Shown piece by piece: positions 5,930-63,469 of a DNA stretch of 64,000 bases. The position numbers and the translations under genes are program-made. Under the pieces are notes generated by a model that worked only from the letters and a program-made list of their open reading frames with translations, searched no databases and was not told where the DNA came from. Source of the stretch: Obrimoposthia wandeli (taxonomy: Eukaryota); contig CDROCS010003621.1 in NCBI GenBank assembly GCA_977020255.1, positions 434,001 to 498,000 on the forward strand, read 5' to 3'. The first letter of the stretch is position 1, and every line of letters begins with the position of its first letter.

Positions 5930-5967
5930 AATGAAGTTAAAAAATTAAAATAATACATATTAATATA

Positions 5968-6153
5968 AATAACAGGTCTGTGATGCCCTTAGATGTCCGG
6001 GGTCGCACGTGCGCTACGATTGCTGTATCAGCGAGTATTCGATCCTAGCTAGAAATGGCCGAGTAACCTGCTAAAAACTACCGTATCAGGAATTTGAGAT
6101 TGCAATTTTTCCACATGAACGAGGAATCCCTAGAAGTGGCAAGTCATTAGCTT
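5968..6153 (+). pseudogene. Degenerate 18S rRNA fragment (3' half)
   Basis: aataacaggtctgtgatgcccttagatgtccgggg...gattgcaattttt...catgaacgaggaat.cctag.ag are universal 18S segments; only about 185 nt, with substitutions. Confidence 0.9.
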
Positions 6154-7599
6154 TTAGCTCTCAGCCTCTCTTCAATTACCAGTACTGGTTCCTGCATTAA
6201 AAAAAATCTAACATTTTAAAAATATATAAAAATTGTATGTATGTGGCTCTTCGGGTCACCGCGGGGCTTCATATGTCCCTCTCCGGCATTTGAGTAATCT
6301 GTGAGTACACATGAGATTTTCAGTTTTAAGAGGTCTTAAATGGGGTTAATTAGTATTTTATGGTGGTGGGTGGGATTTGAAAACACTTTTATACATTACT
6401 TTATATAATTTAAAAAGTACTATATAGGGATTTAGTGGTAGTGGTATGGTACAGTCGGTACACTTGCGGACAAATCGGGGAATTTCAGAAACTAAATGGT
6501 AAGACAAGAATCATGGGGACCCGCTTAAAATCGCTCTTGATGAAATTCAAGTTTCCTATGCGCCTTATCTTCGAATTTCAGTTCACCACTTTGACCACTG
6601 TACCATCCACCGCCAGAAAACTGCTCTTGTGCAGTTGAAAGGTATATATAGGTCTCAGGACATGTATATATTTTTATACACCCACATGAACGAAATTTCA
6701 CTCCACACACATTCACGGTTTAAATGACAGTGGTAACCCCCAGGGGAATGGATTAGACCGGACACATCCACCTACTGACCTTTATTATGATCCTATGTTT
6801 CTTAATTTTTTTCTTTTTGATGTTAAAAATTTCTGTATTTTTTTATTATTTCCCATCACAATATATATTTGGCCAACCTATAAATATTAGTCATTAATAA
6901 ATTTAATTTAATTTGTTTGTCCATTTCTAGACCTTAACAAAACCAATGTTTGGTCACAGGAGGCCTATGTAGAACGTTGGAAATGGATTATAGAGTAAAC
7001 GTTTGGGTTTGATCAGGTGAAAAAATGAAAGAAGATAATACTAATTGTCATGTTCTTTCAAAACAGAAAAGTATTTTCATATTATGGTATCATATTATAC
7101 TATAATATCATTTTCATATTATAGTCACGTGATTTTATTGATTCACATGACCTCCAATGAACTTCAAAAGAGAAGATTTTTAAATCTTTTAGTTTATTTT
7201 AGAAAAAAGGACTGTATACTCCAGATAAACAGTTAAGATAAGTACAGATAAATATTTTAGGACAATTACAAAACTTTGAGAGATGACACAGTCAACTTAC
7301 TGACATGTCTAAACTGGATCAATGCATTTTGGTAGGGTAACTTTAATGTCAATGATACTGAAAGATCTGGAGTGTGCTCCATTATGATGTTGGTAGTGAA
7401 ATTTAAGACTTTAAGCGAAAATAGGCACGCCACAAGTAGGTAATTGTCAGCAGAGCTACATGTCAATCACAACACTGTATAAAGGCATAAAACAATCGAT
7501 TGTGAAGAGTTGTTAAAAGAGCTGAACAGCAATCCTATTTTGAGTCAGTTAATTTCTGTTTATTACTTTTCATGAAGAGGTTATCAGAAAGCATGAAGA

Positions 7600-27000: not shown

Positions 27001-27119
27001 TGTATGAGTTGTTTAAAATAAAAGGTGTCATACTCAACTTATTCGACACAGTTTCAGAAGATGAACGTTTCATTTCATCGTCTGAAAGAAGACAGGTACG
27101 AAGTATGTGAATGACACAG

Positions 27120-27680
27120 AGTAGGTGGATGTGTCCGGTCTAATCCACACCCCCCTCCCCCCCTTGTCCTTTAAAACCGTGCATGTGTGTGGAGTGAAAT
27201 TTCGTGTAGGTGTGTGGAGTGAAATTTCACTCCACACACATGCACGGTTTTAAAGGACAAGGGGGGGGTACCCCCCTAACATTTTTTCGCGCCTTTCGGC
27301 GCGAAGGGCTCGGGACCGACATTGGTCACAGATATACGGATATCTCGTTCTCATATAGGTCACAGACTAGCTTGGCGATGTACGGATGTCTCGCTCTCAC
27401 ACCACACCACACCACTCCACACCACACCACGCCACGCCACACCACACCACACCACACCACACCACACCACACCACGCCACACCACACCACCGAAACACTC
27501 CACCCTCCGCCCGCCCCTTCGGGCGGGCTCTATTCTCACGAAAATAACTACAAAACATGCGCTACAGTATCACTTTACCTCTCACAACTACAAATGTAAA
27601 CGACCCGTGTCATACCCTAACATATACCACCCGCCCCTTCGGGGCGGGCTTCATTTTTGATCTACAGGCACAAAAAACAT
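27120..27680 (+). repeat. Left TIR (internal palindrome, 46-bp repeats, CACCA microsatellite, GC hairpins)
   Basis: Reverse complement of 42134-42816, with few substitutions. Confidence 0.95.
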
Positions 27681-27770
27681 TACAAAAATTATTTGAATAA
27701 GAGGCTCTCATTGGACAATAAAAGAGGGTTAGTACGATGTTTGTGTATATAAATTTTTCATAAATCAACA

Positions 27771-29120
27771 ATGCCATTCTACAACAACGTTGACCTAGAC
27801 GAAGAGACGGATGTTCAACTCTATGGGGATCTCTCTCCAGTGCAGCAGCGAACGCCACCACCCTCGCAATACATTGACTTAGATAGTCAAGAGTCATCGG
27901 TGGTGAGCGAAGGAGAAGCAGCAGCAAGAGCGAACCTGTTGGAAGCCTTATTGGCCAGCTCAACTCCAAGAGAAGAACCAATGAACGTGAGAGGTGGGGT
28001 ACAGAGATCCCAATATATCGATCTGACTAGTCAGGATTCGATAGAGAATTGGGAAGACTGTACTCCCAGACAAAACACAAAACCCAAGCGTCCGGCAACT
28101 TCAGCAGTAGCAGCAGGGAGATCCAATCTCTTCGATAATTTTGAGGCGGCAATCAAATGCCCCTGGAAATTGATCCCGCTGTCTCAACCGGAGAAAGTCC
28201 TCGCACCAGACTCAGACGAGGAGCTGTTCACCAATGATGTACCTTCGGATTGGGAGGAGGACTTGACTCCATTCATCGACGAATGGATACAGCCAAGTAT
28301 CGGAGCCCCTGAAGCCAACGAGTCGATGGTAGCAGAATTGGACGAGGACGAGTGGCACCTGTTCACCGACGATTGGGATGGTCTCACTCCCTCTGCTACT
28401 CCGAAAGCAGATAATACAATGCCTGAACCATTCAAAAGGCCAAAATCTCCTGTTAGGAGAATAAAACCGACGAATGAGGTTAGACATCATTTATTTTAAA
28501 TGTTTTTTAATTTCATTTTCAGAAACTTCAACTGGATATGGCACCGTCAGTGACCATGGTGGAGAGGCTAATTGAACCGCAGTACTTGGCGAGTCAATGC
28601 AGCCAGGAGCTGCCAAGGAGTCAGCTCCGATACCTAGCGTCTCCAGATAATTTTAAGGTAAATTATTTAGATATTTAATTTAATAATTCACATAGATGGA
28701 GAACATTCACGAAGAGGCGACGTCTATTCAACCGGTGGATAGGAAGCAAGCGGCAGTTAAGAAACCGCAACGCCATCGGGTCAAAACCCTCACGCGGAAG
28801 AAGGCCAAGTTGGTGAAACAGGCTAACCTGCCCATCATTGAGGTAAATTATTTATATGTTTAAATTTTATTAATATTTTGCAGGAACCCGTCCAGATATT
28901 TAAGGAGACTTGGGGAGAAGTTACTCCTTTCTCGCGGAAACGGACGAAGAGGGCAGAGGTGAAGAAGACGAGGCGCTCGAGAAAATGTAAAACCTCAATT
29001 GTTCATTATTCTGAGACGGTGATTGGCCAGCAGGAGTCCGCCCTCAAGTCAACGACGCCTGCAGGAGACTGCTTCTCCTCGTCCAACAACCAGCCAGAAC
29101 TTGAAGAGGGCCTGGGATGA
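27771..29120 (+). CDS. Spliced 408-aa acidic/basic low-complexity protein; join(27771-28478,28523-28657,28696-28842,28884-29120)
   Basis: Three phase-0 GT-AG AT-rich introns (44, 38, 41 nt). Exons of 708, 135, 147 and 237 nt are all open in one frame. Confidence 0.8.
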
Positions 29121-29505
29121 CGCTGGATTGGATGAATTCCTGGCGGAACTGGATTCACCGGCAATGCTTCCAGATTCGCGTGGGCAACATGATGCCGTCT
29201 CACGCCAGCTTCAGCGTGAGAAGGAGGAGAAACAGAAGAAAGCTCCACGGAAGAGGACTTCTACGTCGGAACCATCAACATCGGCTGCACCTCCTCCCAA
29301 AACGTTGCGGCAACTTTTGCCAAAACCTGAGGGAAGGACAATTGCTACAAAGCAACCGGTGAAGCTGAAAAAGAAACCGGGCCGGCCAAAGAAGAAGGAA
29401 CCAGTACCGCTTTCTCCTATAATACTTAGTCGGAGGGATTACGACCCGAATGATCCCAATGATGACTTCGTAAAGATGTTTAAAAATATAATTTATAAAC
29501 ATTAG
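29023..29505 (+). CDS. Basic Pro/Lys-rich ORF with AT-hook-like KKPGRPKKK; either the frameshifted true C-terminus of the previous gene or a separate ORF from ATG 29164
   Basis: GC-rich open frame overlapping exon 4 of the preceding gene. Confidence 0.55.
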   Translation: MASRSPPSSQRRLQETASPRPTTSQNLKRAWDDAGLDEFLAELDSPAMLPDSRGQHDAVSRQLQREKEEKQKKAPRKRTSTSEPSTSAAPPPKTLRQLLPKPEGRTIATKQPVKLKKKPGRPKKKEPVPLSPIILSRRDYDPNDPNDDFVKMFKNIIYKH

Positions 29506-29699
29506 TTTCATATGTTTTCTTCTTAATATTTATTTTTTTAAATGTAGAAATACTATCTTTAAGTTTATTTGCAATGATAAGTTATAGATTTATTAAACAC
29601 TCATTTGATAAATAAAAATATATCATTTAATTGGATTAAAAAATATCTTTAATTTATATATATAGGTTCAAATTTATTAACCTTTTCATAATTAAAAAA

Positions 29700-30029
29700 A
29701 TGGAATTCATTAATATGAAGAGTCTGGTGACGACGATTGAAGCAAACATCAGAATAAATGAGAAGAAAGGGGACTTAAGAAAGAGGGTTCTCAATCAAAA
29801 TTTGTATACTGCTGTCGCGACCGAGTGGAATCATCGGGTGGAGATACAGGATAGGAGGCTAGCAGAACGCCGTCGAATCGTGGAGTGGAATAAGAAGATC
29901 GAATTGGAAAAAAGGAAGGTGGATGAAAAAAGAAGAGAAGAGATGGAGGATGTTCGGCGAGCAGCAAGAAAGAGAATCCTCCAGATTAAACCGGAAGAGG
30001 GTCCTTCCACAAAAAAATTAATTTTATAG
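29700..30029 (+). CDS. 109-aa charged coiled-coil protein with LRKRVLNQN (SERTA-like) motif
   Basis: ATG ORF preceded by ATTGG and TATA; SERTA resemblance is weak. Confidence 0.6.
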   Translation: MEFINMKSLVTTIEANIRINEKKGDLRKRVLNQNLYTAVATEWNHRVEIQDRRLAERRRIVEWNKKIELEKRKVDEKRREEMEDVRRAARKRILQIKPEEGPSTKKLIL

Positions 30030-30153
30030 ATTATTATTTTGTCTTCATTGATTATGTTATAAATTGTCTAAATACTACCTCGTCATTTTAATAAATTTTT
30101 GATTAATAGTTTTTCGTTATAAACAACGGGATTTGCTACAGATTTGGGTAATT

Positions 30154-30641
30154 ATGCAGGAATATATCATAGATTTTGAGGCTTTCATTAACAAAATGGG
30201 GATTATATTATAAAAGAATTATGTATTATGGATGTATGCGACGTTTTTCATCCTTTGCATTTCATATTTCATATAGATATCCCATTTAAAAGTTTTTATT
30301 ATAAGAAAAAATTTACTAATTTATATCTAACTAAATATTTCCATTTATTAAAATGGAAAGAAGGACATAAGGCTTTTTGTGAAATATGTATTTTCGATAC
30401 TATTAAATTTAATTTTGAAATTGAAAATGGAATTTTTTATGTTTTAGATGACATGGATGGCAAAAAATATATGACTTTAAAAAAATATTTTCTTAAATTG
30501 AGGTTGAATACTTTAAATATTTCACGTGATCATCTATTAAAAATTCCACGAAATATTTGCTGTCCATATCGTAATCATGGTGACCATTGCGCATATAAAA
30601 AATGTTTAAGTCTTTCTTATTATTACTTGACATGTAGATAA
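30154..30641 (+). pseudogene. Small DEDD/DnaQ-like nuclease-fold protein with C-terminal Cys/His cluster (1-nt frameshift near 30195)
   Basis: MQEYIIDFEAF..(N)GDYIIKELCIMD...H...W..G...CCPYRNHGDHCAYKKC. Confidence 0.55.
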
Positions 30642-30841
30642 ACAATTCTTCTAATTCATAAATTTCATTCAATTACAATTAAATCTTTTGATTGGAGGAA
30701 TAAAAAAATATTTTTTTCGACCATTTAACAGATAAACAAACCTTCTCAATTTTTTAATCCAATAGGAAAAGAGCATGTGTGCATAAATTTTAGTATATAA
30801 GCAAACACTTTCTTCATTTAAATCCCCGACAATTTGAAATA

Positions 30842-33800
30842 ATGCCTATGGTAAGAATTTATTTTTATTATTTCCTTATTAATATTTATTATTTCAGATT
30901 ACTTGTAACCTATTCCCTGCGTATTGTGGTGCTTCGGCTCCACATGGAGGAGAGACCTGCATGGAGACAATGTCTGCATACTACCGGACAAAGTCTCGCG
31001 GGCTTCACTTCTTTGTCTGCCCCTTCTGCAGAACAATGGAAAAGAAGGAGTTTCGAGACTTCTTCAGTGAACATCGAGCTCATCTATCGTGTTTCACGGC
31101 CAACAACAAGAAGAGGGATATCATGCAATTGGTGCGCGATTCACAGGTCGCTCCACCTCCAATTCCAGTTGCAGTCGATCAACCCTTTTACGGTCCTGCG
31201 ATTGGTCTCCCGGCTCCTGATTCTGACCCATCCACTCAAATGTCTAACAATGAGTGGATGAATGACATATCCCAGTCAGATTTCGAGATAGAGCAGTGGA
31301 GCGATAACTCATGGTTGGAGACCATCGAGGAATCCGATTTTGTCGAGATGTCGGACGATAGCTGGATGGATTTCGTCAATGAAGAGGACTTCATTCCAGC
31401 TCAACTTGGATTGCCTTCATTAGGTATTTTTTATTATTATTTTTAAATTATATATTTTATTTTTATTATATATTTTTTATTTTTTGTTTTTTATACAGGA
31501 AGTACCATGATACAGCCGTCATCCGATAGGACAGCTATGCCTCCCCCATCTCGAGTGCCTACATCGATGTTAGCACGCCTTAGAGGTAATTTTTAAAAAT
31601 ATATTTATTTTTTAATATATTTATTTCAGCAGCACTAACCTCTACAACAGCCGCTTCTTCATCGGCAAGGTCAGCTTCAAATGCAGCCTCTACATCTGCG
31701 GCAGCATCTATTCCAGCAGCATCGTCTACACCAGCTGCGATTGCCTCAACATCGGCAGCATGTCCAATGGCAGCACCTTCAACCTCAGCTGCGATTGTGT
31801 CAACTATTAATATAAATAGTTGTCTTCCCGTTCAATTAGGGGGAGGTTTGTCAGCGACAAACGGAAGAAAGAGGCGAGGCCAATTTCTTAATAAGGTCCC
31901 ACCCAAAAAACGTAGAGAAAACGGTGCTACTATAGAGTATCACCTAAATAATAAATATGTTATAGTTAAGGTGCCATTAGGAAATGAAATTTTATTAAAC
32001 GTAGGTGTAGATTCAAATATTGAAAATCTTTTAAAATCAGAAGTGACTAAATTAGGACAGGCTAAGGTTCAATTTTGCGCAACAGTGCAGTTTAAAAATG
32101 TCAATGAGGAAACTAAAACTTGGGTAATTTCACATAAAGCAACTGTTTTTTATGATAATTTTGTAACTGAAATTGGAAGAAACCTGGATGAAAAAATTGC
32201 TAATTATAGCGAGTTAAGTAGTGGATGGACTCTAGTTAGAATTCACGATGTTAGCTTTGTTCTAACAAAGTTCACTGACATGATATATCTTTCGGGAGTT
32301 CATACATTCCTTCACCTAGATCTCTTCAACTTTCACGTTCCATTGTTAACGTACAAAACAGTGATAACCTTTGCTTTCTGTATAGCGTGTTGGCCATCCT
32401 CAAAAGGGATGTAATTACTGAGCATAGAGAGCGTGTCAGTAAATATATCCCTTTTTAAATGAATTGCAGTATCATGGAATAGATTTTCCTGTTAAATTAA
32501 CTGCGATATCAAGATTTGAACATCTTAATAACTTGAGTATTAATGTATTCAAATATAATACTGATATCCCAGTTAATGTAACAGATGAAGAAATTTTTAA
32601 AAATCCTTTTGTAGATGTAATTTATAGGAGCAAAAATGAGGGGACTCAGGTCAACTTAATTTTGCTCGAACAGAATAATAAATTCCATTATGCTGCAATT
32701 CCCAGTTTAGATCGTCTTCTAAATTTAGATAATGGAGCCTTACCGGTTAGGATAAGGTGTAAGTGGTGTCATAGATGTTTGCATGGGTTCCGATCTGAGC
32801 TCTCTTACAGCAAACATCTGACATTATGTTCACTGAATCCTGATGACAATACGCTATATAGCATGCCTAAGGATAAGGATTTAAAATTCAGGGATTGGGC
32901 AAAATGCATACCCGTGGAATTCAGGGTGTATGCAGATTTTGAGTCAATTTTAGCATTGCACGACCAGTATGAGAGTATTCACCTAACGGCTTCGGCAGGA
33001 CTACTATTCTTAGGCCCCAATATTACCCAGTATCATAAATTTTTCGGTCCAAATTGTATTTTAGATTTTATGTTAAAATTAGAAGAATTAGGAACAACAA
33101 TTGTCAAACTGTGGTATGATCTCAATGCCCATCAAGCAATGATCATGACAGGCATAGACTGGGTTAATTTTAATTCTTGTAGATTATGTTATTTGTGTGG
33201 AACCCAGTCTAAGTTAGTCAGAGATCACGATCATGTTACGGGGCGATACTTGGGAGCGGCGTGCAACCTCTGTAACCTTGGCCGTCGTCTCCCTAAAAAA
33301 CCACGCATTCCCATCGTGTTTCATAACCTCAAAGGATATGATTTGCATCATATACTTAAATACGCGTTGGGTACATTAAGCTCTTGGGAAATTTCATGTA
33401 TACCTCAAACTTCAGAGAAATATTTATCTTTAACTGCATATACTGAATTCTGCAGTTTAAGATTCATAGATTCTCTGCAGTTTTTGAGCGGGTCTTTAAA
33501 AAATTTAACGGCATCTTTAAATGCATGGCCAATTACACAGTCAGTGTTCCCAGCTTCGGTTAACGATAAGGGGATTTTTCCGTATAAATTTGCGAAAACT
33601 TTCGCAGATTTAGAAAAATACAACTAAATCCCACCCATAACTGAATTTGAGGGTGTAAGTCTTCAAGACTATAATGAGGCCCGTACATTTTGGGTGAATA
33701 ATTGTCGAAATCTTTTAGAATATATGCTTTATTATATGAAGTTAGACATTTATCTTTTAGCTGATGTTTTTGAGTCCTTTCGTGTAAAGTCTTTAGCAGA

Positions 33801-35218
33801 AGATGGGCTAGATCCCATGCATTTCTTTAGTTTACCTGGTCTTTCATGGGCAACAGCAATAAAAACTCTTAAAATTAATATCGAGTTACTGCAAGATCCG
33901 CGATGTATCAAATGTATGATTATGGTATACGCAGTTGAATGACTTTTGTCAACAAACATCATGTTGTCAAAAATCAATCCACGGAGATTCTGTACCTCGA
34001 TATTAATAATTTGTATGGGTGGGCGCTTACTCAACCTCTACCTCATGCCAACTTTAAGTGGGTTTATGATGTGGATCAGTTGAATAAGTTGATGACAGAT
34101 TTGGCTACTGTTGATACAGTTTCATCCGACGTCGGCTATTTGGTTGAGGTGGACATAAAAATCCCTCCCAATGTGCATGATAAATTAGATGATCTTCCAG
34201 TAGCGCCTGTTCATCAATGCCCACCTAATTCAAAGGTTAAGAAATTATTGTTAACCCATGAAGACAAGTTGAATTATGTTGTGCATTGGCGGCTTCTTCA
34301 ATTCTACTTAAAGTTGGGAGCGAAAGTTACTCGAATTCATCGTACTATAAGCTTCAGTCAATACTTTGTGTTTAAAGACTATATTGAGAAGAATTCAAGA
34401 AAACGTAATTTGGCCACTAGCAAATTCGATCGAGATTTTTACAAGTTAAAAAGTAATAGTCTCTTTGGAAAAACTGTAGAGGACTTGCGGAAACGTATTT
34501 GTCTACGGTTTTGCAATGATGAGCGTAAACTAATAACATATACTAGCAAGTACAACTTCAAGCGTAGTTTTACAATTGCAGATGACTTGGTAGCAGTGTT
34601 ATTAGGAAAACAGAGTATTTGTCTCGATCGACCGAGTTATATAGGTCAAACGGTTTTAGACATTTCTAAACTCAGAATGTATGAGCTTCAATACATAGAA
34701 TTGGAGAAATACCGACAAGAATTTAATTATGAGATTAAAATCACAGCTGGGACACTGACTCTTTCTTTTTAGAATGTAGGAATGTTAGTTTAAATAATCA
34801 ATTATTACCAGCAATGTTTAGGGACAACTTACTAGATACCCATAAATATCCCGCTAACCATCCTCTACACTCTATGAGTTTAAAGGACATTATCGGGAAA
34901 TTTAAGGATGAAAGCGAGGGACAGGTTTCGTATGATGATTGTATTTTCCTACGCCCTAAATGCTACAGTTTACATGCATCTAATAATACATGTTCAATGA
35001 GAGCAAAGAGTGTGGGAAGAAACAATCTTACACATGAGGCCTACCGGAAAGTTTATGATACTGGGTGTATTGAAAGCGTTGAGCAAACTAGATTTATTTC
35101 AAGAGCCCATCAACTGTATTCCCATAAATCAACAAAGATCGCTTTGAGTAGTAATGACGACAAGCGCTTTTGGGTAGAAAAGAACGCTAGCCTGGCTTAT
35201 GGACACTTCAGAATTTAA
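30842..35218 (+). pseudogene. pPolB: Protein-primed DNA polymerase B with spliced N-terminal extension; join(30842-30850,30898-31423,31499-31585,31630-...35218); several frameshifts and one in-frame stop
   Basis: SGW..., NVQNSDNLCF, ExoI VYADFES, endonuclease-VII-like CYLC...DHDHVTGRYLGAACNLCN, ExoII FHNLKGYD, KGIFPY, ExoIII LDIYLLADVFE, PolA LDINNLYG, PolB KLKSNSLFGK, PolC AG(DTDS) and PKCY. Confidence 0.95.
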
Positions 35219-35492
35219 ACGGTTTTCATTTTTTGATTTTTTTAGTTTAGTTTTTAAAAATTTAGATCCTTATGGCACTTAGACTCTAACTTATTTGTTA
35301 TTTCAATACTTTTTTAGGATGGACCTTATTTATTATGCCTTATCTTTGCTGACATATCTCATTGTGATGTTGTGATTAATAAATGTATTAAAAAAAATTG
35401 TCTTATGTCTTTTATTATTTTACCCTTATATTTTTAGAAATTTAAAAAATAATTCAAAATAAAACATTTAAATTTTTTATTTTTATAACACA

Positions 35493-36340
35493 CTAATTGT
35501 TTTGCAACGATAACCATAAAATACATAAAAATTGAAAAGAAATTAAAATGAATTTCGGTAATCTTACATCACCAAATATTTGATCCTTATTAAAAGCTTG
35601 TGTACCCGTACCTAAAGAGTAGGTTATAAGTTTAGTTTCTCTAATAGGATAACAAGCATTGTTTTTTTCCATTCCTATATTATGTCCCATTAAAACTGAT
35701 TGCTCGGTTTTAACTCTTCGGACATACAATTTTGCATCCAAAATATCAAGTCTAGGTTTTAGAATGTCCGTGCTTATCAAAGAAAAATTCCATTTATTAC
35801 GTTTCAAACGAAGATGTACATTAACACCGGGAATTAAATATTTCGGTTGTTCAAAGAAATTCAATCTCAAAGACCCACACATTTCGTAAGCTTTAGAACC
35901 TGCAATCCATTCTTTGCGAGTTGCATCAGTTTTATCATAACCAATGGTTGCCAAATTAGTATTTTGAGTATCAGTACTATAATTCAAAAGACTTTCAATC
36001 AAAGCTTTATGAGCATAGGAAGAATTTCCACCTTCAATTTTGACATTATTAAGAGTAACAATGGCATCACTAAATAAAGAATTAAATAGATAATTTATAA
36101 GTGTTACATCGGCATTTTCATCTAAATTAGTACCATCCCGATTTAATACTTTTATTTGAACATAAAGCAAAGTATCATTCAAATCTAAATACTCGCTATT
36201 GGAACCATTAATATTAAATCGGTTAAAGTGGTTCCTGAAACTGAGTTAACAAGGAATATTTCTTCAAAGGAAGCATTATCTACAACTACTTGTGGAAGCG
36301 GTTTATCAAAAATACATAATTCAGTTTTGGCGCAACTCAT
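35493..36340 (-). pseudogene. Major capsid protein (double jelly-roll), frameshift near 36215, C-terminus missing
   Basis: ATG at 36340 overlaps the upstream TGA; MSCAKTELCIFDKP...YLDLNDTLLYVQ...LFNSLFSD...KYLIPGV..L.L.R...YPIRETK; ends prematurely after LPKFILIS. Confidence 0.9.
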
Positions 36341-36714
36341 TTTGCAAATATTGTTCCTTCAACTTTCTTACGTTTGTTTATATTAATTTTTAGCTTCTTT
36401 TTACTTTTAAATCCACTACCTCCTTGGCTTTTATTTGATTTACGTTTTCTAATCAAATTAGCAACTTCAGGTAAAACATTATCAAGTTCATCAAGCGCAT
36501 GCTTCTTAAAAGTTGGTATTAGTTTATTGTCATTAGATGAAAGGTAATCCTTTCCTAATTTTGATATAAATCGCCCGAGTCTCTTTAAAAGAGGAAAGGC
36601 AAATCTACCTAATGTTCTAAGCCAGCCAGATCCGTATTGTTTACCAACAAAATATGGTAATTCTCCACCTTGTTGGCTTTGACTATAAGCTTCAATTATT
36701 GCTGGATTCGCCAT
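36337..36714 (-). CDS. Conserved Polinton virion-associated protein (QQGG/QYGSG motifs, amphipathic helix, basic tail)
   Basis: QQGGELPYFVGKQYGSGWLRTLGRFAFPLLK; lies between the minor and major capsid genes. Confidence 0.75.
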   Translation of the reverse strand: MANPAIIEAYSQSQQGGELPYFVGKQYGSGWLRTLGRFAFPLLKRLGRFISKLGKDYLSSNDNKLIPTFKKHALDELDNVLPEVANLIRKRKSNKSQGGSGFKSKKKLKININKRKKVEGTIFAK

Positions 36715-37749
36715 TTTGTTTTCTTAAATGTATTGTTAAACTTGTCTTGGCCCCGTACGTGAAATCTATTAGTTGTCCGGAATCATCTCTAATATTTACT
36801 TCAATATTGTTTATAGAAAAGAGAGAAACTGGAAGATATATTGGTTGATCTATACACATACCGACAGTGTCCCCATCTCTAGTTTCATTTTTAGATATCC
36901 ATATTGTTCTCAAAAGTGGAACTCGCTGTCCTCCTACAAGCGTTGGTCCTATTAAATTAGTATAAATATATAAATGATTAACAGCATTTAAAAGTTTTGC
37001 CTTATTTTTAGCTTTAATGGTTTTTATTGTATGGGTTTCAAAGGTATTTCTGTTTAAACCAAGGTTTTTAGCGAGTTTATCATCAAATGAAACTCGTTTT
37101 ATATTGCTCTTTACTGTAAACGTTAATTTACCATTTAATGTTTCACATTTATCCAAATATTCACTACATTCCTTCTGTATTAATTTACAGAAATTCACTT
37201 CACTATCTATTTTATAATCTTTTGAAAACGTTTTCAGTTCCACTACAGTCTTTGGTCTCGTTTCAAGTAACAACACTTTTGCTACTCTACCAGGAACATT
37301 TCTAACCGAATTAGATGAGATAATATCCCGTTTATTACGAGCTACTGTTTGTTCACTATCAAAACTGAATTGAAGAGCTTCTTTTTTAGATTCAAAATTA
37401 ATTTTAATAACTTGAAGAAATTTTAATCGATTTTTAAATCTGACTTTGTTATTTTCAAATATTACTTTCACTTCTTTATCTATACAATTGTAATAGAATT
37501 GTCCTTTACTATCAAACCCGATCACAACTTCAGTTGTTTTTTCATGATCAACTTCTTTTGTAAACGAAATATGTGAGTTTTTTTGATAGTAATTGGAGAA
37601 TAATAAAAAGAAAATTCTGTTAAAGCCGCTTCCCATTCTCCTTGGAGATTTATAGAATTTTCCCAATCGATAATAAAGCTACTAGCGTCATTATCTGGTT
37701 GAGTCTTCGGACATCCGTTACTTGGTAAAACCATATAGATAGAATTCAT
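36692..37749 (-). pseudogene. Minor capsid (penton-like) protein, one frameshift near 37600
   Basis: N-terminal YMVLPSN...P.N..SSF...L.GEWEAALTEF; C-terminal LYIYTNLI...VGGQRVPLLRTI...YLPV...IEVNIRDDSG..IDF...LTIHLR. Confidence 0.88.
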
Positions 37750-38827
37750 ATTATATTATATGCTGATATCCAAGTTGGGTTTGAATAACCATGCCATTTA
37801 ACAAAGTATTGTTTATGTTTACCTGTACCCTTAGATTTTAATATTTTTTGAATACGGAAAACGCTAGGTTTATTTGATATTACTTGTAGTTCTTGCTCGT
37901 AAAATTTACCGTGAACGATATTATTGTCAGCATCTTTAATAGTATACATTATTGGATTACTCTTTTGATCAATTTTACTTATACAAAATATTTCATCGCT
38001 CCAATTCTGATCAAAGTTTTTAATAAATGGAGTAGAGCTAATTTTCGAAATTCGAACATATTCGTTTTTCTTATATTTAGCTTTTTTAATTTTATCTTTT
38101 TTATTCCTGTTCATCCAAATGTCCATAGAGTTTTTATTAGTAACATCAACAGGTCTCATTCCCTTGAGACCTCTATGTTCAGAGAGATTATATGCATGTA
38201 TTATTTTAGGTAAAACTTGGATCCATTTTTTATTTCCTTCTTTTGTGAAATACTTTTTATTCGATCTCTTAGAGTACGATTAAATCTTTCTACTACTGCT
38301 GCTTTGTATTGTGAAAACACAGAGTAATGATTTATATTATTTTGTTTAAATAATGATTGAACTTGCTTATTATAAAATTCTTTTCCTAAATCAGTTTGCA
38401 CATTTTGTGGAATGTCCTCTTTTAATATTTCTTTAATGGCTTCAAGCATAGCTATCGAAGACTTTGCTTTAACTGGAATTGCACGAGAAAACCTGCTAAA
38501 TACATCAATACATGTTAAAATATATCGATATCCCTTATTAATGGAAGAATATGGGATCATCTCCATCAAATCCATTTGCCATAAATTATTAGGACCGCTG
38601 GTTTTGTAAGCTCTAGTTGGAAACCTTCTTCTCATCAGCTTGTTCAGACTGTAGGCTAACTGATCGCTCAGCCATTTCTGCGTTTTCTTGTAATTTTGTT
38701 TTGTTCTTTTTGTTAATTTTGAAACTCCTGTGTAGCCAATTGGATCTTTTGGATTGAACCATATCTTATCCATTACAACAATTTGAATAGAAAGAAAATT
38801 TAAGTTTAGGTAAAGAAGGGCTAGCAC
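37746..38827 (-). pseudogene. Retroviral-like (rve) integrase with C-terminal chromodomain, frameshift near 38200
   Basis: WQMDL, CIDVFSRF, VQTDLGKEF, VERFNRTL (DDE); KQYFVKWHGYS..TWI chromodomain. Likely start ATG at 38773. Confidence 0.95.
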
Positions 38828-38859
38828 CCATATCTTTAGCTGATTTTAGAAATAATTGT

Positions 38860-39189
38860 TTATGAACGTGTCGCAGCTATAATACTACTGATAATTGAAG
38901 CAACAACTGGAATAACAGCCCCTATGAAACCACCATTCTGTTTAAGAATAATATTTCGTTTCCTTTTTTTACTTTTTACATTAGCAATATCTAGAAGAGT
39001 TTTTCTATATTTCTTTAATATATTTTTCCGATTTCCAACTTTTACTCGACCCAAAACTATATTATATAAAACTTCCAATAAATCATCTACAACAAAGGAT
39101 GGGAATGCTTTAAGAATAATCATTCTCTTATTAGAAGAGGCTTTGACTAAAGCTTTAAAATAGGGCATGCTTCTTTGTATTTTCTTCAT
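38860..39189 (-). CDS. Conserved Polinton protein with QNGGF site and hydrophobic/amphipathic C-terminal tail
   Basis: ...EVLYNIVLG...KQNGGFIGAVIPVVASIISSII. Confidence 0.75.
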   Translation of the reverse strand: MKKIQRSMPYFKALVKASSNKRMIILKAFPSFVVDDLLEVLYNIVLGRVKVGNRKNILKKYRKTLLDIANVKSKKRKRNIILKQNGGFIGAVIPVVASIISSIIAATRS

Positions 39190-39220
39190 TTTAATAAAAA
39201 GGGTTTAATTTAAATATTGT

Positions 39221-39361
39221 TTATATTCGAAGCCATTTAAGTTTTTTTTTATTTTTCACTACAGATTTGATTAATTTTTTCACTTCTTTTTTCTTAATGA
39301 TTCTTTTTTTTGATTTCTTAGATTTTACTTTACGTTTTACTATCAACTTTGTAAAAGGCAT
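39221..39361 (-). CDS. 46-aa lysine-rich microprotein (putative DNA-condensing core protein)
   Basis: MPFTKLIVKRKVKSKKSKKRIIKKKEVKKLIKSVVKNKKKLKWLRI*; starts 8 nt after the ATPase stop; below the ORF-track cutoff. Confidence 0.6.
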   Translation of the reverse strand: MPFTKLIVKRKVKSKKSKKRIIKKKEVKKLIKSVVKNKKKLKWLRI

Positions 39362-39368
39362 TGCGAAT

Positions 39369-40003
39369 TTATTTTTTATAATTGTTCTCTATTTGTTTAT
39401 AAACAGTTACTCCCTTAGAATTAAATATGTCTGTTAAAACACGTAAATCATCTGGGCAAGCTTGTGTAAAGTCAATAAATATATACCCATGTGCTTGTTT
39501 AGCAGCATCATGGAATGAATCAACTAGAAAGTTCTTATTTTGAGGAAATGCCTGTCTGGCCACAAAATCAACAACTGTTTGATCTCTAGGATTTTTAAAT
39601 AAAACTAAGTAATGTACATTAAGATTTCTTGTTCTATGGTGACCTCCTTGGTGAAACAGATTTTGAGTGATAAATATAACTGTAACTTCACGATGTCTTG
39701 CAATCTTTGTAAATAAATTATTAAAGTCCGATTCCTTGTTAGCCTCCTCATACAAATCATCAATTATTATTACATCTTCTTTTTTCAATCTTTCACACCA
39801 ATTTGCATCAAATCCTTCAATAAATTTTATACCCTTCAACTTGCAAACTTCTGTTTTGGTTAACCCGCTTTCCCTCCTCCACCATGATGCCAATATATTT
39901 TTGAAACTAGATTTGTTCATTGCAACAATTTACAGACGAAATGTGTCTTTCCACTTCCACTTGGGCCAACTATTTGAAATACAGCATTATTATTTAGCTC
40001 CAT
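39369..40003 (-). pseudogene. A32/FtsK-like packaging ATPase, frameshift near 39920
   Basis: MELNNNAVFQIVGPSGSGKT (Walker A), VIIIDDL (Walker B), ARHREVTVIFITQNLF, NVHYLVLFKNPRD. Confidence 0.95.
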
Positions 40004-40040
40004 TGCATATACTCTTTCATTTTTAATATTGTTTATATTA

Positions 40041-40843
40041 TCATTGAAGTTTCCTTATTGAAATGTACAATGTTAGAGCTATTGTAGATGAAATACAAAA
40101 ATTAATTAATGAATATTTGGCTATAATTTTATTTATTTGTGTACGATTTCTAAATTCTCGAATAACGTGTGATCTAACCAATATTTCAATGTTATCTCTT
40201 GTTATATCATTATTTTTTAATTCTGATAAAATTTCTTTACCCCTAATTTTTCCAGAAAATATTTCATCGGCAAGCCGATCCACTTCATTGTCTCTATTTA
40301 TAGTATTATTCATTTGAAACAATAAGTTTAAACGGGTTTGTTTATAGAAAAAAGATAACAAGATGTAATAAGATATATTTTCTAAAATCAAATCAACTAT
40401 GTCTGGATAATCAAAATTTTTCAATCCCAATATCATAACTTTACCACTGGAAAATATATTTACACATAGCGGTTTAAACTTCAAATAACTGAGAGCAGGA
40501 AAAATTTCTGGTTCAAACATGCATTCTTCTTTCATTTTCTCTGCAGTTTTAAAAAGATTTATCTGTTTCCCGAGATTAGCCGAAATCGTGATTGATTGTA
40601 TTGCAGTGATTTGAATTCCAAATGGTAAATTGAACCTAAGCATTGGTATTTTGCATTCCATAACACGACAATTTCCTAAAGAATTCAATATGAAAATAAA
40701 ATAAAAAACTAACCTGTAGGAAAAATAACAACTGTGAAATTGTCAAACTTTTCTACATATTGTCTCGGCTTCCATTCATTGAATGGTAAGTACGAAACAT
40801 CATCTTCTGTTCTACCTTTATAATTTATATTTACGAGTTTCAT
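40041..40843 (-). CDS. TATA-binding-protein-like protein; complement join(40041-40675,40714-40843); C-terminal extension with hydrophobic tail
   Basis: After removing a 38-nt GT-AG intron: MKLVNINYKG...TVVIFPTGNCRVM...IQSITISANLGKQINL...MFEPEIFPALSY...VNIFSSGKVMILGLK, i.e. two TBP repeats. Confidence 0.85.
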
Positions 40844-40859
40844 TAGACTGAAATTGTAT

Positions 40860-41030
40860 TCTGTAAAATTTTCTTTTTATATGTCTGAACCTGCTTTTTT
40901 ATTGCACGTTTCTTGTAATTATCTTGCAAACCTATTATAATTGGATGATATATTTAGTCCAATCAAATTCAATGCTTTTGTTATATTAACCAATGAGATT
41001 CATGTTTTTGTTAGAAATTAGTATAAAAGA
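40860..41030. promoter_or_regulatory. Divergent CCAAT/TATA promoter region between the TBP-like gene and the right-end genes
   Basis: Minus TATAAAA at 40875-40881; plus TATAAAA at 41022-41028; CCAAT/ATTGG at 40940, 40959 and 40990. Confidence 0.5.
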
Positions 41031-41059
41031 ATGCATCATTGGAGGACAAATCACAGTAA

Positions 41060-41536
41060 ATGCATTCATATCAAAGACAATTATCAACAATGGACGATAG
41101 CCAACGGGTATTAAGCGATGACGAAGAAATGTTTGAAGAATCGGATAAGGATATGTATGAAGAAGTGAAACAATATTTCAAATACAAAGTCAGATTCTTG
41201 AAGAAGGCTCAACTGATTGCTTTAGTAAATCCTGTGACAATTGAAAGAAGAAAGTTCAGCTACTATCTATCAGGTATTCAAAAACCTGATTTTCAATATC
41301 TTAAACAGAAAATAGAAAAGGCAGTTCCGAATTTTACTTTCAATAAGAACGAATTTTATATCCGAGGAGCCGATGAAGCATTTCTAGATGACTATGGAAG
41401 ATATGTTGATATTGATGCGTTTCCGAAAAAGAAGCAATGGACTGTAACAATTCGACTTTATGGTTACAAGAAAGATGAAATGGGAACAAAGTTGCCTATG
41501 TGGAAAATTGAACGTGCTCATATTCCTATGTTTTAA
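41060..41536 (+). CDS. 158-aa hypothetical protein, paralog A
   Basis: Intact ATG ORF; aligns with 41660-42064. Confidence 0.8.
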   Translation: MHSYQRQLSTMDDSQRVLSDDEEMFEESDKDMYEEVKQYFKYKVRFLKKAQLIALVNPVTIERRKFSYYLSGIQKPDFQYLKQKIEKAVPNFTFNKNEFYIRGADEAFLDDYGRYVDIDAFPKKKQWTVTIRLYGYKKDEMGTKLPMWKIERAHIPMF

Positions 41537-41659
41537 CTTTTTGCGTGTAATAAATTGTAATCGGTTTTACTATGTTTCTTTCATTTAATAATCAGTTTTA
41601 TTTGTATCTTATGTGTATTTTTTATAAACATTGTTTTTAATCAGTTTCCTTATTTTAAA

Positions 41660-42064
41660 ATGGATAAAAGATATGTAGCAAATTTTTATTATCCAGAAAG
41701 AATTTCAAAAGGAAAACTGTGTAATATATTAAAGAGGCATCAAATTATACGAGTTATGAATCCTGTGAAAATATCAAAAGTGGAGAAAAAATATCTCATC
41801 GAAATTTTAACAACAACTGATTTTGATCAACTGAAAAATATTTTGGGATTTTACATTCCTGATTATGTATATGAAGGAAATTGTTTCGAGCTTGAAACTG
41901 ATCCCAGTCTGGATTTTAAAGATGATCTAGGATATTTGATTGCTCCAATTCTAGATGAAGAACTATGGAATATCTCAATACGTCTGAATGGATATTTTGC
42001 TGATGACGGGACAATGCAGCCTCTCTGGACTTTGAGTGAAGCCAATATGTTGTTTTATGTTTAA
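41660..42064 (+). CDS. 134-aa hypothetical protein, paralog B
   Basis: Intact ATG ORF; homolog also in the relic at 5270-5420. Confidence 0.8.
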   Translation: MDKRYVANFYYPERISKGKLCNILKRHQIIRVMNPVKISKVEKKYLIEILTTTDFDQLKNILGFYIPDYVYEGNCFELETDPSLDFKDDLGYLIAPILDEELWNISIRLNGYFADDGTMQPLWTLSEANMLFYV

Positions 42065-42133
42065 TAAATATTTTGAAAAATAATTTTGTCTCGTATTTTG
42101 TTTTTGCTCCTCTAAATTATATAGATCTGACCG

Positions 42134-42816
42134 ATGTTTTTCGTGCCTGTAGATTAAGAATGAAGCCCGCCCCGAAGGGGCGGGCAGAGNNNNNNNNNNN
42201 NNNNNNNNNNNNNNNNNNNNNNNNNNNNNNNNNNNNNNNNNNNNNNNNNNNNNNNNNNNNNNNNNNNNNNNNNNNNNNNNNNNNNNNNNNNNNNNNNNNN
42301 NNNNNNNNNNNNNNNNNNNNNNNNNNNNNNNNNNNNNNNNNNNNNNNNNNNNNNNNNNNNNNNNNNNNNNNNNNNNNNNNNNNNNNNNNNNNNNNNNNNN
42401 NNNNNNNNNNNNNNNNNNNNNNNNNNNNNNNNNNNNNNNNNNNNNNNNNNNNNNNNNNNNNNNNNNNNNNNNNNNNNNNNNNNNNNNNNNNNNNNNNNNN
42501 NNNNNGTACATCGCCAAGCTAGTCTGTGACCTATATGAGAGCGAGATATCCGTACATCGGCAAGCTAGTCTGTGACCTATATGAGAACGATATATCCGTA
42601 CATCTGTGACCAATGTCGGTCCCGAGCCCTTCGCGCCGACAGGCGCGAAAAATGTGTAGGGGGGTACCCTCCCCCGTTGTCCTTTAAAACCGTGCATGTG
42701 TGTGGAGTGAAATTTCACTCCACACACCTACACGAAATTTCACTCCACACACATGCACGGTTTTAAAGGACAAGGGGGGAGGGGGATGTGGATTAGACCG
42801 GACACATCCACCTACT
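42134..42816 (-). repeat. Right TIR (contains assembly gap 42190-42505)
   Basis: Inverted copy of the left TIR; the gap falls where the CACCA microsatellite is expected. Confidence 0.95.
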
Positions 42817-44660
42817 ACACAGTAATAGGAAATTAAGAAAGAAACAGCTGGTGTCTATCGAGCAGGTGCAGAAAACGTACAATATGTGAGAAACAATTGC
42901 AAAACAGTAGATACAAAAGAAGCACAGAAGATGCCCTAAAAACACCAAAGTCAAATGTGTCCCTATTTTTCTATTCATCAAATTTGTCAACAGACAACTT
43001 TACAGTAATTTACGCTACAGATAATGAAAGTCACTACTTTGTCTCAGATGAAACTATTGCTCGGAGATGGCCGGCGAAAATTAGAAGTATTCTACTTATT
43101 TTGTTAGACCAACAGGATGATTTACAGAAGGTCACCATTAATTTATTTAGTGATTTCTTTGGAAGTCCAAATCGGGTTTCAGGGTAATTCTAATGGGTTT
43201 TTGAATTTTGAAGCCAATAGCATCAGAGACATTAATCATTTATTTTTCGAATCAGGTCACCATCAAAGTGAGAATGACAATCTACATGCTGTGATCGAGA
43301 ATGCAGCAAAATTGTTGAAATATTTACTTCCCTACAGTTGTTAAGCAGATTTTTAGTGCTTCAAAAAATAAGGTAGTTGAATTGAACTAAATAAAATCCC
43401 AAGACATCATTAGAAAAAAACGAAGAGACAAGTCAGAATCTTCAAAGTACAGATAATGAATTATATAATTGATTGTGTCTTAGCTAGTGAGTCACGTTTG
43501 GTTAAACACTGAGAACAAGATGCCGAAATGAAGAGAGTCAAGAAAATGGATTTGAACTAACTGTACAAAGATCGGATTATGATTTCAAAAGCTAATAAGA
43601 AAATCTTGAGACACTTTGCAAAGCTGACAATACCCAGAAACTACTCAAAAGGTTACAAAGAATTGTTGGAACATGTGAAAGTTGAAGATAATGTGGACTA
43701 AGTAGTACTAAAATTATGTACATAATCTAATTTATCATGTACATCGCAGTATATCCAACTTAACTTTTCCTTAATTATTGTAATAATAATAATGTCAGTA
43801 TATAGATATGTAGGTTTTGGTACAGTAATCCCATATAAAATGCAGAGTTCCCACCATTTTTAATGGTTTATATTGTTCCAGCTTTTCAGGTTTCCACAAT
43901 TGTACACTGTTCATTTTTGCACACTGTTTCTTATTTATGTTGAGTCAGTAGTCACCTGAGGCTTAATTAACTCTTAATTAAGTATCCATTTTGTTTTTTT
44001 GAGCAATTAACTTTCTATATTGTCCCCTTTTTTATTTATTTTAACTGTAATTTAAACTTTCAGGGTCACAAAATGTCCTTGGCCCAGACTATAAATAAAG
44101 CCAATTAAATTGAAATATATGTGATTTTAATTCGTCCGATTCTGGACCTCAACATGTCTGATAATCCAATTTTCAAATTCGAAATTATTTTTTGAAAAAT
44201 CAAAATATGAAATATAAATCAATCCTTACTTTCGCCTTTATGATACATCCACACACATGGAATTGATACCAAAGAAAGTGTATGCTCAATACACGCTTAA
44301 ATACACTTCAAACATTCAATCAGATGAACATTATGACGCAATAATGTTCCAAAGATACAAACTAATCCTATAGAAATTCCTTAGAATAAAAAAGGATAAA
44401 TAATGGGTGAAAATAATGCACATACAGACATGGGAACTTGAAAAGCTGGAAAATTAGAAGCAATGGAATTCGTGAGGACTATGCATACCTGGTGGAGTTC
44501 CCGATCAATCTACCAATTTAAGTTCATATTTTCCTTAAAAAACACGTTTAGACATTTTTCTATCTTTCAATTTTTATGTTTGTATTTATAATCATTTATA
44601 TATATATATATATGTTATATCTACATTTGGTATTTAAATTAAAATGATTTGTTTTAAGTT

Positions 44661-60970: not shown

Positions 60971-63469
60971 CAGGGGTGTGCAACAGGCGGCCCGCGGGCC
61001 ACAACCCATCCCGCGAAGCCATTTAGTGCGGCCCTCGCGTGCCAGATTAAATTAAAAAGTTTGGCAGATTTTATAAAATTTATTATAAATATAATAATAA
61101 AAAATAATAATCAGAATGAATATAGACTTACAAGATATTTTTAATTTATACACTTTCTTTAAAATTGCGCCAACACTAAAACAAAAAATGATCTACACAT
61201 TTTTGGCCTAGCATGTATGGGTGAGTCATTTGTTTAACTAATAGCATGTGCTAAAAGTACATAGACAATCATGCTATCTTTTGTTATGCACACATATACA
61301 CATAAAAACAAAGCGTCCTTTTAAATAAGGACGCTGTCTATGTGCAGACCAACACGCACTCACTTTTTCAACAGTACCTTACGGCTTATACAGACCATAG
61401 TACAGGAGATTGAAGGTAAATGGATTATTATTTTCTTTTGAAATGATAGCATATTTTGTTACTGTTAATTTTTTGTGTGCTTATTTCAGGATGAGTAAAA
61501 TGTGGGCAGCTAAGAAACGAAAAATTGATGACGAAGGAAGGGTATTTAACAGTGATTGGTGTACAAAATATCTTGTTGCCCCACATAACGAAGGTGTTGT
61601 CTGCCTCGTCTGTCAAGTTACAATTGCAGTCATGAAGGAATATAATGTTAAACGTCATTACACAACGAAGCACTCCTCCCAGTTTGATAAAATTGTTGGT
61701 CAGGCAAGAGTGGACAAAATTGAACATTTAAAAAAATCATTTGAAAAACAACAAGGTATTTTTACCACTTACAAGAATAACTCAGAACTGGTGACAAAAC
61801 TGAGTTTTAAGCTTTGTGAATGTTTGGCAGAAAAGGGAAAGTCTTTCAGTGATGGAGAATTTATTAAAGATTGTTTAACAATATTCACAGAATATGCATG
61901 CCCAGAGAAAAAATACTTGGTGGATCAAACTAGTCTTTCCCGCTTTACTGTCTCACGCAGGACAAATGATCTTTCAGATAATATCAAAGAAACATTGAAA
62001 GAGAAATTGAAATCATGTGAAGCTTTCAGTCTGGATTTAGATGAGAGTACTGACATCAGTGACACAGCCCAACTTGCCATTTTCATCAGAGCTGTTACTC
62101 CTGCCTTCGATATTGTTGAAGAGTTTTTAGATATGGCAAGCCTTTCTTCAACAACTACAGGACAGGATATTTGTGAACAGGTGCTTAAAGTAGTGGAAAA
62201 GTTTGAACTGAATCCTGCTAAATTGTGTGGTGTTACAACAGATGGTGCTCCTTCCATGACAGGGGGGATAAATGGATTCACCAAAAAATTTATAAATGCA
62301 GTTGGAGCGCAAGACTTAATTGTAAGCCACTGCATTATTCACCAAGAGAACTTGTGCACCAAAGTTTTGGATTTTGCAGAAGTCATGAGAAATGTTGTCA
62401 AGTGTGTAAATTACATTCGAGCACGAGGATTAAATCATCGGCAATTTAAAGCTTTTCTAGATGAGCTGAACTGTGACTATCCTGATGTTGTGTACTTCTC
62501 TGCTGTACGTTGGCTCAGTAGGGCTGCCACTTTGATGAGGTTCTGGAATCTGCGACAGGAGATCAAGTTCTTCATGGAGAGTAAAAATCAGAATGTGGCC
62601 TTCTTAAGCGATGAGAACTGGTTGAATGACTTAGCATTCCTCACAGACATTACACAGCATCTGTCTGATCTGAACTTAAAACTACAAGGGAAAGGTCAGC
62701 TTGTGAATAAGCTGTTTGAGCATATTTGTGCTTTTGAGAATAAATTGGAAATTTTCCAGGCTCAGTTGAGTAGAGCCACATTGACCCATTTCACATGTCT
62801 CGCAACCAGAAAACTGGAATTTCCTGATCTGGATTGTACTAACTATGAAGCGAGTGTACAAAAGCTGCGTGCTGAGTTTACAAACAGATTTTCAGATTTC
62901 AGACAAAATGAAATTAAACTCAAATTGTTTGCTCAACCTTTTGATTTGGTAGTGGAAGACAGCCCTGACGATTGCCAAATGGAACTTATTGAACTGCAGG
63001 CTGACATGGATACCAAGAGGAAATATTCTGAGAATAGTTTGGTAGACTTTTACAAAATCTATATGTGTGAAAAGTTTCCCAATTTGTCAAATCATGCAAA
63101 AAGAATGACCTCCCTCTTTGGTAGCACATACTGCTGTGAGCAATTCTTCTCTAAAATGAAGCTCACTAAACACAGGTTTAGAAGTCAGCTGACTGATGAA
63201 CATTTGATCAGTCAGTTAAGGGTGGCTACTACTTCTGTTAAAGCTGACATTGACAAAATATGCCAGGGATCCAAATTTCAAGTGTCTCACTAAAATGGTA
63301 TGTCATAATATTGTACTAGTATGTTAAATAAATGTATGTGATCATGTTTAATATATTGTGAGAATTTTTGGATTTATTGTCATGAAAAACCTAAATTTTC
63401 AGTGTGGCCCGCTTGATGTCTAGACGTTTTATTATATGGCCCACCGACCAAAAATGTTGCACACGCCTG
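60971..63469 (+). mobile_element. Apparently intact hAT (Buster/SPIN/GTF2IRD2-type) transposon, 2499 bp
   Basis: gtttatac|caggggtgtgcaac ... gttgcacacgcctg|gtttatac: 14-bp TIR (13/14 match) and 8-bp TSD. Confidence 0.97.
61491..63293 (+). CDS. hAT transposase, about 600 aa, uninterrupted
   Basis: KKRKID..GRVF, BED-like CLVC...H...H, LDESTD, TTDGAPSM, CIIHQENLC, VRWLS, TYCCEQFFS. ATG 61491 follows a ttatttcag acceptor. Confidence 0.95.
   Translation: MSKMWAAKKRKIDDEGRVFNSDWCTKYLVAPHNEGVVCLVCQVTIAVMKEYNVKRHYTTKHSSQFDKIVGQARVDKIEHLKKSFEKQQGIFTTYKNNSELVTKLSFKLCECLAEKGKSFSDGEFIKDCLTIFTEYACPEKKYLVDQTSLSRFTVSRRTNDLSDNIKETLKEKLKSCEAFSLDLDESTDISDTAQLAIFIRAVTPAFDIVEEFLDMASLSSTTTGQDICEQVLKVVEKFELNPAKLCGVTTDGAPSMTGGINGFTKKFINAVGAQDLIVSHCIIHQENLCTKVLDFAEVMRNVVKCVNYIRARGLNHRQFKAFLDELNCDYPDVVYFSAVRWLSRAATLMRFWNLRQEIKFFMESKNQNVAFLSDENWLNDLAFLTDITQHLSDLNLKLQGKGQLVNKLFEHICAFENKLEIFQAQLSRATLTHFTCLATRKLEFPDLDCTNYEASVQKLRAEFTNRFSDFRQNEIKLKLFAQPFDLVVEDSPDDCQMELIELQADMDTKRKYSENSLVDFYKIYMCEKFPNLSNHAKRMTSLFGSTYCCEQFFSKMKLTKHRFRSQLTDEHLISQLRVATTSVKADIDKICQGSKFQVSH

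Follow-up and report, generated by a model that had tools for sequence, protein, structure and literature searches.

A conserved, intron-bearing Polinton gene for a predicted minimal TATA-binding protein in Obrimoposthia wandeli

The window analysed here, a 64,000-nucleotide stretch of Obrimoposthia wandeli DNA (GenBank assembly GCA_977020255.1, contig CDROCS010003621.1, positions 434,001 to 498,000 of the forward strand), contains a 15.7-kb Polinton/Maverick insertion at 27120..42816. The element is delimited by terminal inverted repeats (TIRs) that start with AGTAG at 27120 and end with CTACT at 42816, and by a 6-bp target-site duplication (TSD), ACACAG, at 27114-27119 and 42817-42822. Apart from these ends, it carries the protein-primed DNA polymerase B (pPolB) and the retroviral-type integrase that define Polintons, both as fragmented genes: the polymerase at 31767..35218 on the plus strand (DNA_pol_B_2 match) and the integrase, with a chromodomain and in two pieces, at 37746..38773 on the minus strand (rve and Chromo matches). 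Further minus-strand genes are a packaging ATPase (39369..40003), whose frame is broken in the window copy and which shows a visible Walker A motif and a weak Pox_A32 match (E 0.013), and a basic core-protein-like ORF (38860..39189) with a weak Adeno_PX match (E 0.014). A putative minor capsid gene, a 125-aa ORF and a putative major capsid gene occupy 35493..37749 on the same strand; this region was without a family match, and its capsid labels follow from gene order.

The window copy is degraded, with several genes in pieces. The end of the major capsid gene and the protease are present in sister families and missing here; in particular, an adenovirus-type protease was found in families B, C and D and not in the window copy, which we read as a deletion in this copy. 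Two paralogous ORFs on the plus strand (41060..42064), common neighbours of the gene for TATA-binding protein (TBP) in relatives, are predicted OB-fold single-stranded DNA-binding proteins, as judged from the predicted fold of a relative that resembles T7 gp2.5 and ASFV CP312R (Z 7.1, rmsd 3.0 Å, 104 residues; a modest match) as well as giant-virus proteins. Many of their metagenome relatives are apparently intron-bearing. A conserved gene at about 30154-30641 (plus strand) combines a Cys/His-rich end with an N-terminal IDF(E/Q)(A/G)F motif suggestive of a DEDD-type nuclease; it had no Pfam match, its ORF at 30228 had no usable Atlas match, and its homologue lies immediately upstream of the TBP gene in many metagenome loci.

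The TBP-like gene, hereafter mini-TBP, lies on the minus strand. Its first exon (40714..40843, 130 nt, ATG at 40843) encodes a reduced repeat 1 with the equivalents of N69, N71 and F116. A 38-nt, phase 1 GT-AG intron (40676..40713), placed by comparison with other families, separates it from exon 2 (40341..40675), which encodes the end of repeat 1 and a complete repeat 2. Exon 2 matches PF00352 at 44.5 bits, above the Pfam cut-off of 22.9, together with 35 PDB TBP sequences, while exon 1 alone gave no significant Pfam match; the intron explains why ORF-based annotation catches just half the gene. A product of exon 2 only was rejected, because exon 1 is conserved and carries invariant residues. 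The original prediction of a Polinton-encoded, intron-containing TBP-like gene is borne out by this location inside a TIR- and TSD-bounded element with pPolB and integrase.

The exon junction was tested by comparison among element copies, not by RNA. The genome contains at least four Polinton families with a TBP gene, with at least 150 matches in each of four protein searches, and in the one sampled element from each of families B, C and D it is located upstream of the genes for ATPase, integrase and the capsid module. Family B, which has at least 150 matches in the genome, is intronless: its 144-aa protein, about 52% identical to the window exons, runs uninterrupted in one frame across the junction site. 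A GT-AG intron at this codon is present in 62 of the 66 distinct loci examined, belonging to families A (that of the window), C and D and to one metagenome locus (L103), and was not found in the remaining four (L041, L049, L060 and L163). These introns are 35-42 nt long, and their AT-rich bodies align at just 63-68% between families. The GT-AG ends, and a frame restored with respect to intronless homologues, are those of a spliceosomal intron. A chance AT-rich insertion is very improbable given the same-site introns in three families and one metagenome element; with the collinear intronless family and the unrelated intron bodies elsewhere, the predicted 38-nt intron is taken to be real. One of the four exceptions, L163 (G000:C549:174511-174741), represents a further TBP-bearing Polinton family with about 79% DNA identity to family C, in which the donor site is at the same position and the acceptor is altered.

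At the site of the mini-TBP intron, all host TBP-family exons examined are continuous, and the introns seen in host TBP-family genes are short as well. In a 44-row tree rooted on the longer Polinton TBPs, six intron-bearing rows are nested in an intronless clade and two changes are needed, while a single intron origin is not rejected (AU p 0.247). The comparison suggests that the intron was gained within the element lineage. As the searches favour intronless genes, the proportion of intron-bearing relatives is probably underestimated; 13 of 150 listed representatives begin at a Met directly after the junction, which could reflect more intron-bearing genes or truncated gene calls, and these were excluded from the counts. 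Four further short, AT-rich GT-AG intron candidates lie in plus-strand genes of the left arm (28658-28695, 30851-30897, about 31423-31497 and 31586-31629), and removal of the second brings an upstream ATG in frame with ORF 30961. For the structural module, the same scan returned no short GT-AG candidates on the coding strand.

The fold of the TBP stops at about 40341, and the rest of the span originally assigned to the gene, 40313 to 40041 on the minus strand, is probably a separate gene. It forms a 90-aa ORF (40041..40313) without a family match, with its own ATG and a promoter-type box at -33, which in the window copy is fused in frame to TBP. Among 29 near-identical loci, picked by likeness to the window, reading continues through to 40041 in 14, stops after 122 codons of exon 2 in nine and stops elsewhere in six. 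The originally proposed span of 40041..40843 thus holds for TBP to about 40341 and not beyond.

Structure prediction was performed on a natural intronless family-B relative, L044 (144 aa; 63.8 bits against PF00352, cut-off 22.9), and not on the window's own spliced product. The AlphaFold2 model, built with 33 homologues, reached a pLDDT of 94.5 and is closest to human, yeast and archaeal TBP (Z 13.6, rmsd 2.4 Å, 144 residues). A two-repeat TBP saddle of about 145 aa is therefore predicted with high confidence, in line with the fold first proposed, and the proposed shortening of repeat 1 corresponds in the model to the absence of both repeat-1 helices.

Yeast residue numbers were assigned by motif, and most of the DNA-contact numbers match Table 1 of PMC12529657. 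The IFPTG, IFPAL and IFSSG motifs, equivalent to the intercalating F116, F190 and F207, are each invariant in 40 of 40 family members, whereas the F99 column is not conserved (Y 13, H 8 and K 5 of 40; Lys/Pro in the other register), so that both the three retained phenylalanines and the lost fourth, first noted in a single copy, extend to the family. The acidic TFIIB stirrup is kept (E186 in 39/40, E188 in 40/40). On the DNA face, polar residues replace hydrophobic ones at V71 (N, 39/40), V122 (R, 39/40), V161 (T, 38/40), I194 (R, 37/40) and L205 (N, 40/40), and N159 is replaced by Ser in 39/40. The window's family carries Ser at 194, where 37 of the 40 members carry Arg, and immediately after the junction, at a column that hardly varies, the window copy also departs from the majority of copies.

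Cellular TBP/TRF proteins (PF00352; 1YTB, 1CDW/5FUR, 1MP9) share with mini-TBP the two-lobed saddle, N69, F116, F190, P191, F207 and E186/E188. In contrast to them, mini-TBP is the product of a mobile element, groups in a clade of its own, spans only about 145 aa, has no repeat-1 helices, does not conserve F99 and has a polar DNA face; it thus departs from the canonical set of four intercalating phenylalanines and two helices per repeat.

A protein search gave 43 matches among 50 database candidates, the best 27 of which are 48-61% identical and mostly 145-155 aa long, and a profile search gave 62 clusters at E up to 1e-30. Among 74 metagenome loci, 30 are at least 3 kb long; a Polinton core gene is present in 22 of these 30, and a core or shared element gene in 26. 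The homologues are located in Polintons rather than at host loci, which goes against the host capture named as a refutation in the original prediction, and in a quick tree the minimal TBPs form a single clade (42 rows, SH-aLRT 99) separate from host TBPs. Polinton-like loci also carry TBPs of 163-171 aa, which keep the repeat-1 helix regions, and of 169-188 aa, with two full repeats. In viral contigs, a single-protein query retrieved no relative, an alignment query retrieved one distant two-repeat TBP, and no Polinton loci were found when sought as a TBP-less control. The dN/dS ratio is 0.11-0.45 in nine metagenome pairs and, for exon 1 between families, 0.14-0.31 with synonymous sites close to saturation; genomic copies that are nearly identical look neutral, exon 2 giving a dN/dS of 1.36 against L054. 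The mini-TBP clade is Polinton-borne, widespread and under purifying selection, and does not stem from a recently captured host pseudogene. Loci L124-L134 are Polinton-like elements with a full two-repeat TBP and with RTAAGA boxes ahead of their structural genes, and in L127, L129 and L131 a PC4-like gene lies upstream of it.

These comparisons confirm, at the level of sequence, a real, conserved and intron-bearing Polinton gene for a minimal TBP. The intron is common to families about 50% identical in protein and sets the gene apart from published Maverick genes. Vertebrate Mavericks have TIRs, a 6-bp TSD, pPolB, integrase, ATPase and a capsid module like the window element, with eight intronless ORFs and "no introns observed" (Barreat and Katzourakis 2021, PMC8097293); unlike them, the window element includes a gene for TBP and as many as five short introns, four of which are candidates. 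The accessible main text of that article contains neither "TBP" nor "TATA". Introner insertions reported in dinoflagellate Polinton-like elements, as far as described in the accessible text, are a different case (PMC11957031). A Polinton TBP is not wholly unreported, in that the label "TBP" is given to a gene in a figure legend by Starrett et al. (2021), for MELD viruses whose PolB is adintovirus-like (PMC8502044). That label belongs to the section on non-animal datasets, the accessible text gives no size, intron, residues, promoter or function for it, and "TBP" does not occur in the supplement; what it has in common with mini-TBP is a TBP-like gene carried by Polinton-related elements. In the open literature at title and abstract level, we found no description of a Polinton mini-TBP, its intron or its box, which subscription papers, Repbase or bioRxiv supplements may mention. 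Among other viral proteins, the TBP-like proteins of Nucleocytoviricota and mirusviruses share the fold (BFVD matches), yet they are larger and only 10-20% identical to mini-TBP. An RNA polymerase of their own is encoded by many such viruses.

The promoter regions of the window element fall into two types. A canonical TATA box lies 38 nt upstream of the TBP start codon (40874..40881, minus strand) and is inferred to be an early-type promoter. By contrast, the motif YATAAACA occurs on the minus strand before the 90-aa ORF (40339..40346), the packaging ATPase (40030..40037), the basic core-protein-like ORF (39218..39225), the integrase (38857..38864), the putative minor capsid gene (37810..37817), the conserved 125-aa ORF (36808..36815) and the putative major capsid gene (36375..36382), such that seven of the eight minus-strand sites in the element precede seven consecutive genes. 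Across related elements, counted in the 130 nt upstream of start codons after filtering at <70% identity, YATAAACA precedes 49 of 56 structural-module genes and none of 39 TBP genes, with 5.3% of random windows containing it; these upstream regions come from related elements and a few studies, and the Fisher p of 8e-20 overstates their independence. Gene by gene, the box precedes the major capsid gene in 10/10, the 125-aa ORF in 10/10, the core-like gene in 11/11, the integrase in 9/13, the minor capsid gene in 8/11 and the ATPase in the single region counted (1/1). The canonical TATAWAWR shows the opposite preference, occurring at 19/39 TBP genes versus 5/56 structural genes, while CCAAT is not enriched before TBP genes (14/39 versus 15/56, p 0.37). 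Fifteen divergent or partial loci (L118 and L122-L135) were left out of this count, and four of them were analysed apart for a second motif, RTAAGA.

In those four elements, which have a full-length TBP, RTAAGA precedes 17 of 26 genes (TBP and PC4 excluded; background 9.7%) and YATAAACA precedes none of the 26, whereas in the mini-TBP clade RTAAGA is near background (8/66). This pairing of TBP clade with box is an association between two clades of related elements, both TBP-bearing. YATAAACA is strand-specific and often lies 33-42 nt before the ATG, a TATA-like position, although the distance varies between families. Some boxes lie within coding sequence or overlap stop codons, and those in coding sequence use ATA and AAC, which in these loci account for just 38% of the codons for Ile and 26% of those for Asn. 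A role as poly(A) signal was rejected, because the box is often situated ahead of the upstream stop codon and is missing after the last gene. The distribution of the boxes suggests an early-to-late switch like that of herpesviruses.

The closest functional parallel is KSHV ORF24, a viral TBP fold whose polar DNA face reads a non-canonical late box, TATTWAA, and which acts with host Pol II, as described in the accessible text of PMC12529657; it is a precedent for the function proposed here for mini-TBP. The same source gives ORF24 as a 752-aa protein with all four phenylalanines, without the TFIIB acidic residues and requiring five other viral activators, whereas mini-TBP is no more than a saddle, retains the stirrup and has one Phe fewer. 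More generally, herpesvirus TBPs (ORF24/BcRF1/UL87) are large multidomain proteins with a Pol II-binding N-terminal domain, unlike the 144-aa mini-TBP; the dedicated non-canonical box before structural genes is found in both, with a different motif, and is an analogy.

We consider it fairly probable that mini-TBP is the element's own late-gene promoter factor, acting with host Pol II. Host TBP and Pol II would transcribe mini-TBP early from its canonical TATA box, the host spliceosome would remove the short intron, and the protein would then bind YATAAACA before the packaging, core, integrase and capsid genes. TBP and TFIIB are a textbook interaction pair and, since the stirrup is kept, recruitment of host TFIIB, and with it Pol II, through the invariant E186/E188 would be the simplest route. 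Loss of the repeat-1 helices would remove surfaces that TFIIA and TBP regulators use. At the box, the C-terminal repeat, which is intact (F190, P191, F207), would grip the 5' end; the polar face (N71, R122, S159, T161, R194 and N205), from which F99 has been lost, would tolerate a non-canonical C in position 7. This orientation is derived from the insertion of Phe pairs into the TATA box at steps 1/2 and 7/8 (PMC1935006, accessible text) and from the preference of P191 for T at box position 1 (PMC12529657), which would place the intact repeat 2 towards the 5' end and the remodelled repeat 1 towards C7.

Several observations count against this late-factor model. Crystals have been obtained of cellular TBP bound to a box whose position 7 is C (PDB 1QN3; accessible text of PMC8643651), and host TBP may therefore read YATAAACA unaided. 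Moreover, just 19 of the 39 TBP genes have a canonical TATA box, the window copy is degraded, its family carries Ser194, and near-identical copies look neutral.

The original prediction had named a basal transcription factor or a TBP decoy as alternatives, and the basal factor fits better, given a stirrup that does not vary and a box dedicated to the structural genes. As a decoy or repressor, the protein would bind host TFIIB or TATA boxes and damp host or early transcription, leaving the element boxes to host TBP. We regard this as unlikely: an invariant stirrup combined with lost repeat-1 surfaces is what a competitor could have, and the C7 box can be bound by cellular TBP, but the polar replacements that are fixed on the DNA face indicate a new specificity, the two TBP clades have different boxes, and the TBP gene itself is without the box.

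There is a small chance that a host protein, for instance one of the forkhead type, recognises the box and that mini-TBP has an unrelated role. YATAAACA contains ATAAACA, which resembles a forkhead-type core, and the motif is also present in the flanking host DNA (12 sites over 41 kb, compared with 12 over the 15.7 kb of the element); its strand specificity, its frequent TATA-like placement and the pairing of a different TBP with a different box speak against such a reading. It is similarly improbable that mini-TBP is an architectural, DNA-bending protein for replication or packaging rather than transcription; its commonest neighbours, an SSB-like OB-fold gene or, in the full-length clade, PC4, would suit that role, yet the boxes mark gene starts and replication offers no obvious purpose for an acidic TFIIB stirrup that is invariant. 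Finally, an artefact or one-off capture, in which a chance AT-rich intron arose in a captured host pseudogene, agrees with the degraded state of the window copy and is otherwise largely refuted, and very improbable, given the recurrence of the splice site in other families, the collinear intronless relatives, purifying selection on both exons between families, the uninterrupted host exons and the distance of the clade from host TBPs.

Extending the late-factor model, Polintons, which lack an RNA polymerase, may, as a tentative proposal, time the expression of their capsid genes by a self-encoded early-to-late switch made of a minimal TBP and a private box, working through host TFIIB and Pol II without other viral factors. 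The early-gene product would have been reduced by way of the visible 172-aa two-repeat, 165-aa and 145-aa forms, different clades would pair their own TBP with their own box (YATAAACA or RTAAGA), and introns, being restricted to early genes, would impose a further step that depends on splicing. As a predicted natural minimal TBP with changed specificity, mini-TBP would be useful for basic transcription work.

The host genome itself (loci L031/L032 at G000:C238:871798-874002, L033/L036 and L034/L035) has two canonical-type TBP genes arranged head to head and further divergent TBP-family genes, as well as several TFIIB/Brf-type genes, with TFIIB split over separate exons. A 16.7-kb derivative of family D (G000:C1312:218497-235161; L160-L162) has inverted arms of about 5 kb, each with SSB-like and TBP genes, and no pPolB was detected in it; other contigs likewise hold paired TBP genes at a spacing of about 8.2 kb. 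In family D, a dual-specificity phosphatase ORF (L161:1178-1897; PF00782, 49.5 bits) lies between the TBP gene and the ATPase. Elsewhere in the window, 5033-6776 is a Polinton derivative of 1.75 kb, bounded by TIRs and containing fragments of capsid and SSB genes, close to a separate pPolB fragment at 3419-4074. By inspection, a 616-aa ORF at 61443-63293 (plus strand) resembles a hAT-type transposase, and an ORF at 13586-14194 (minus strand) is Gag-like and of retroelement type.
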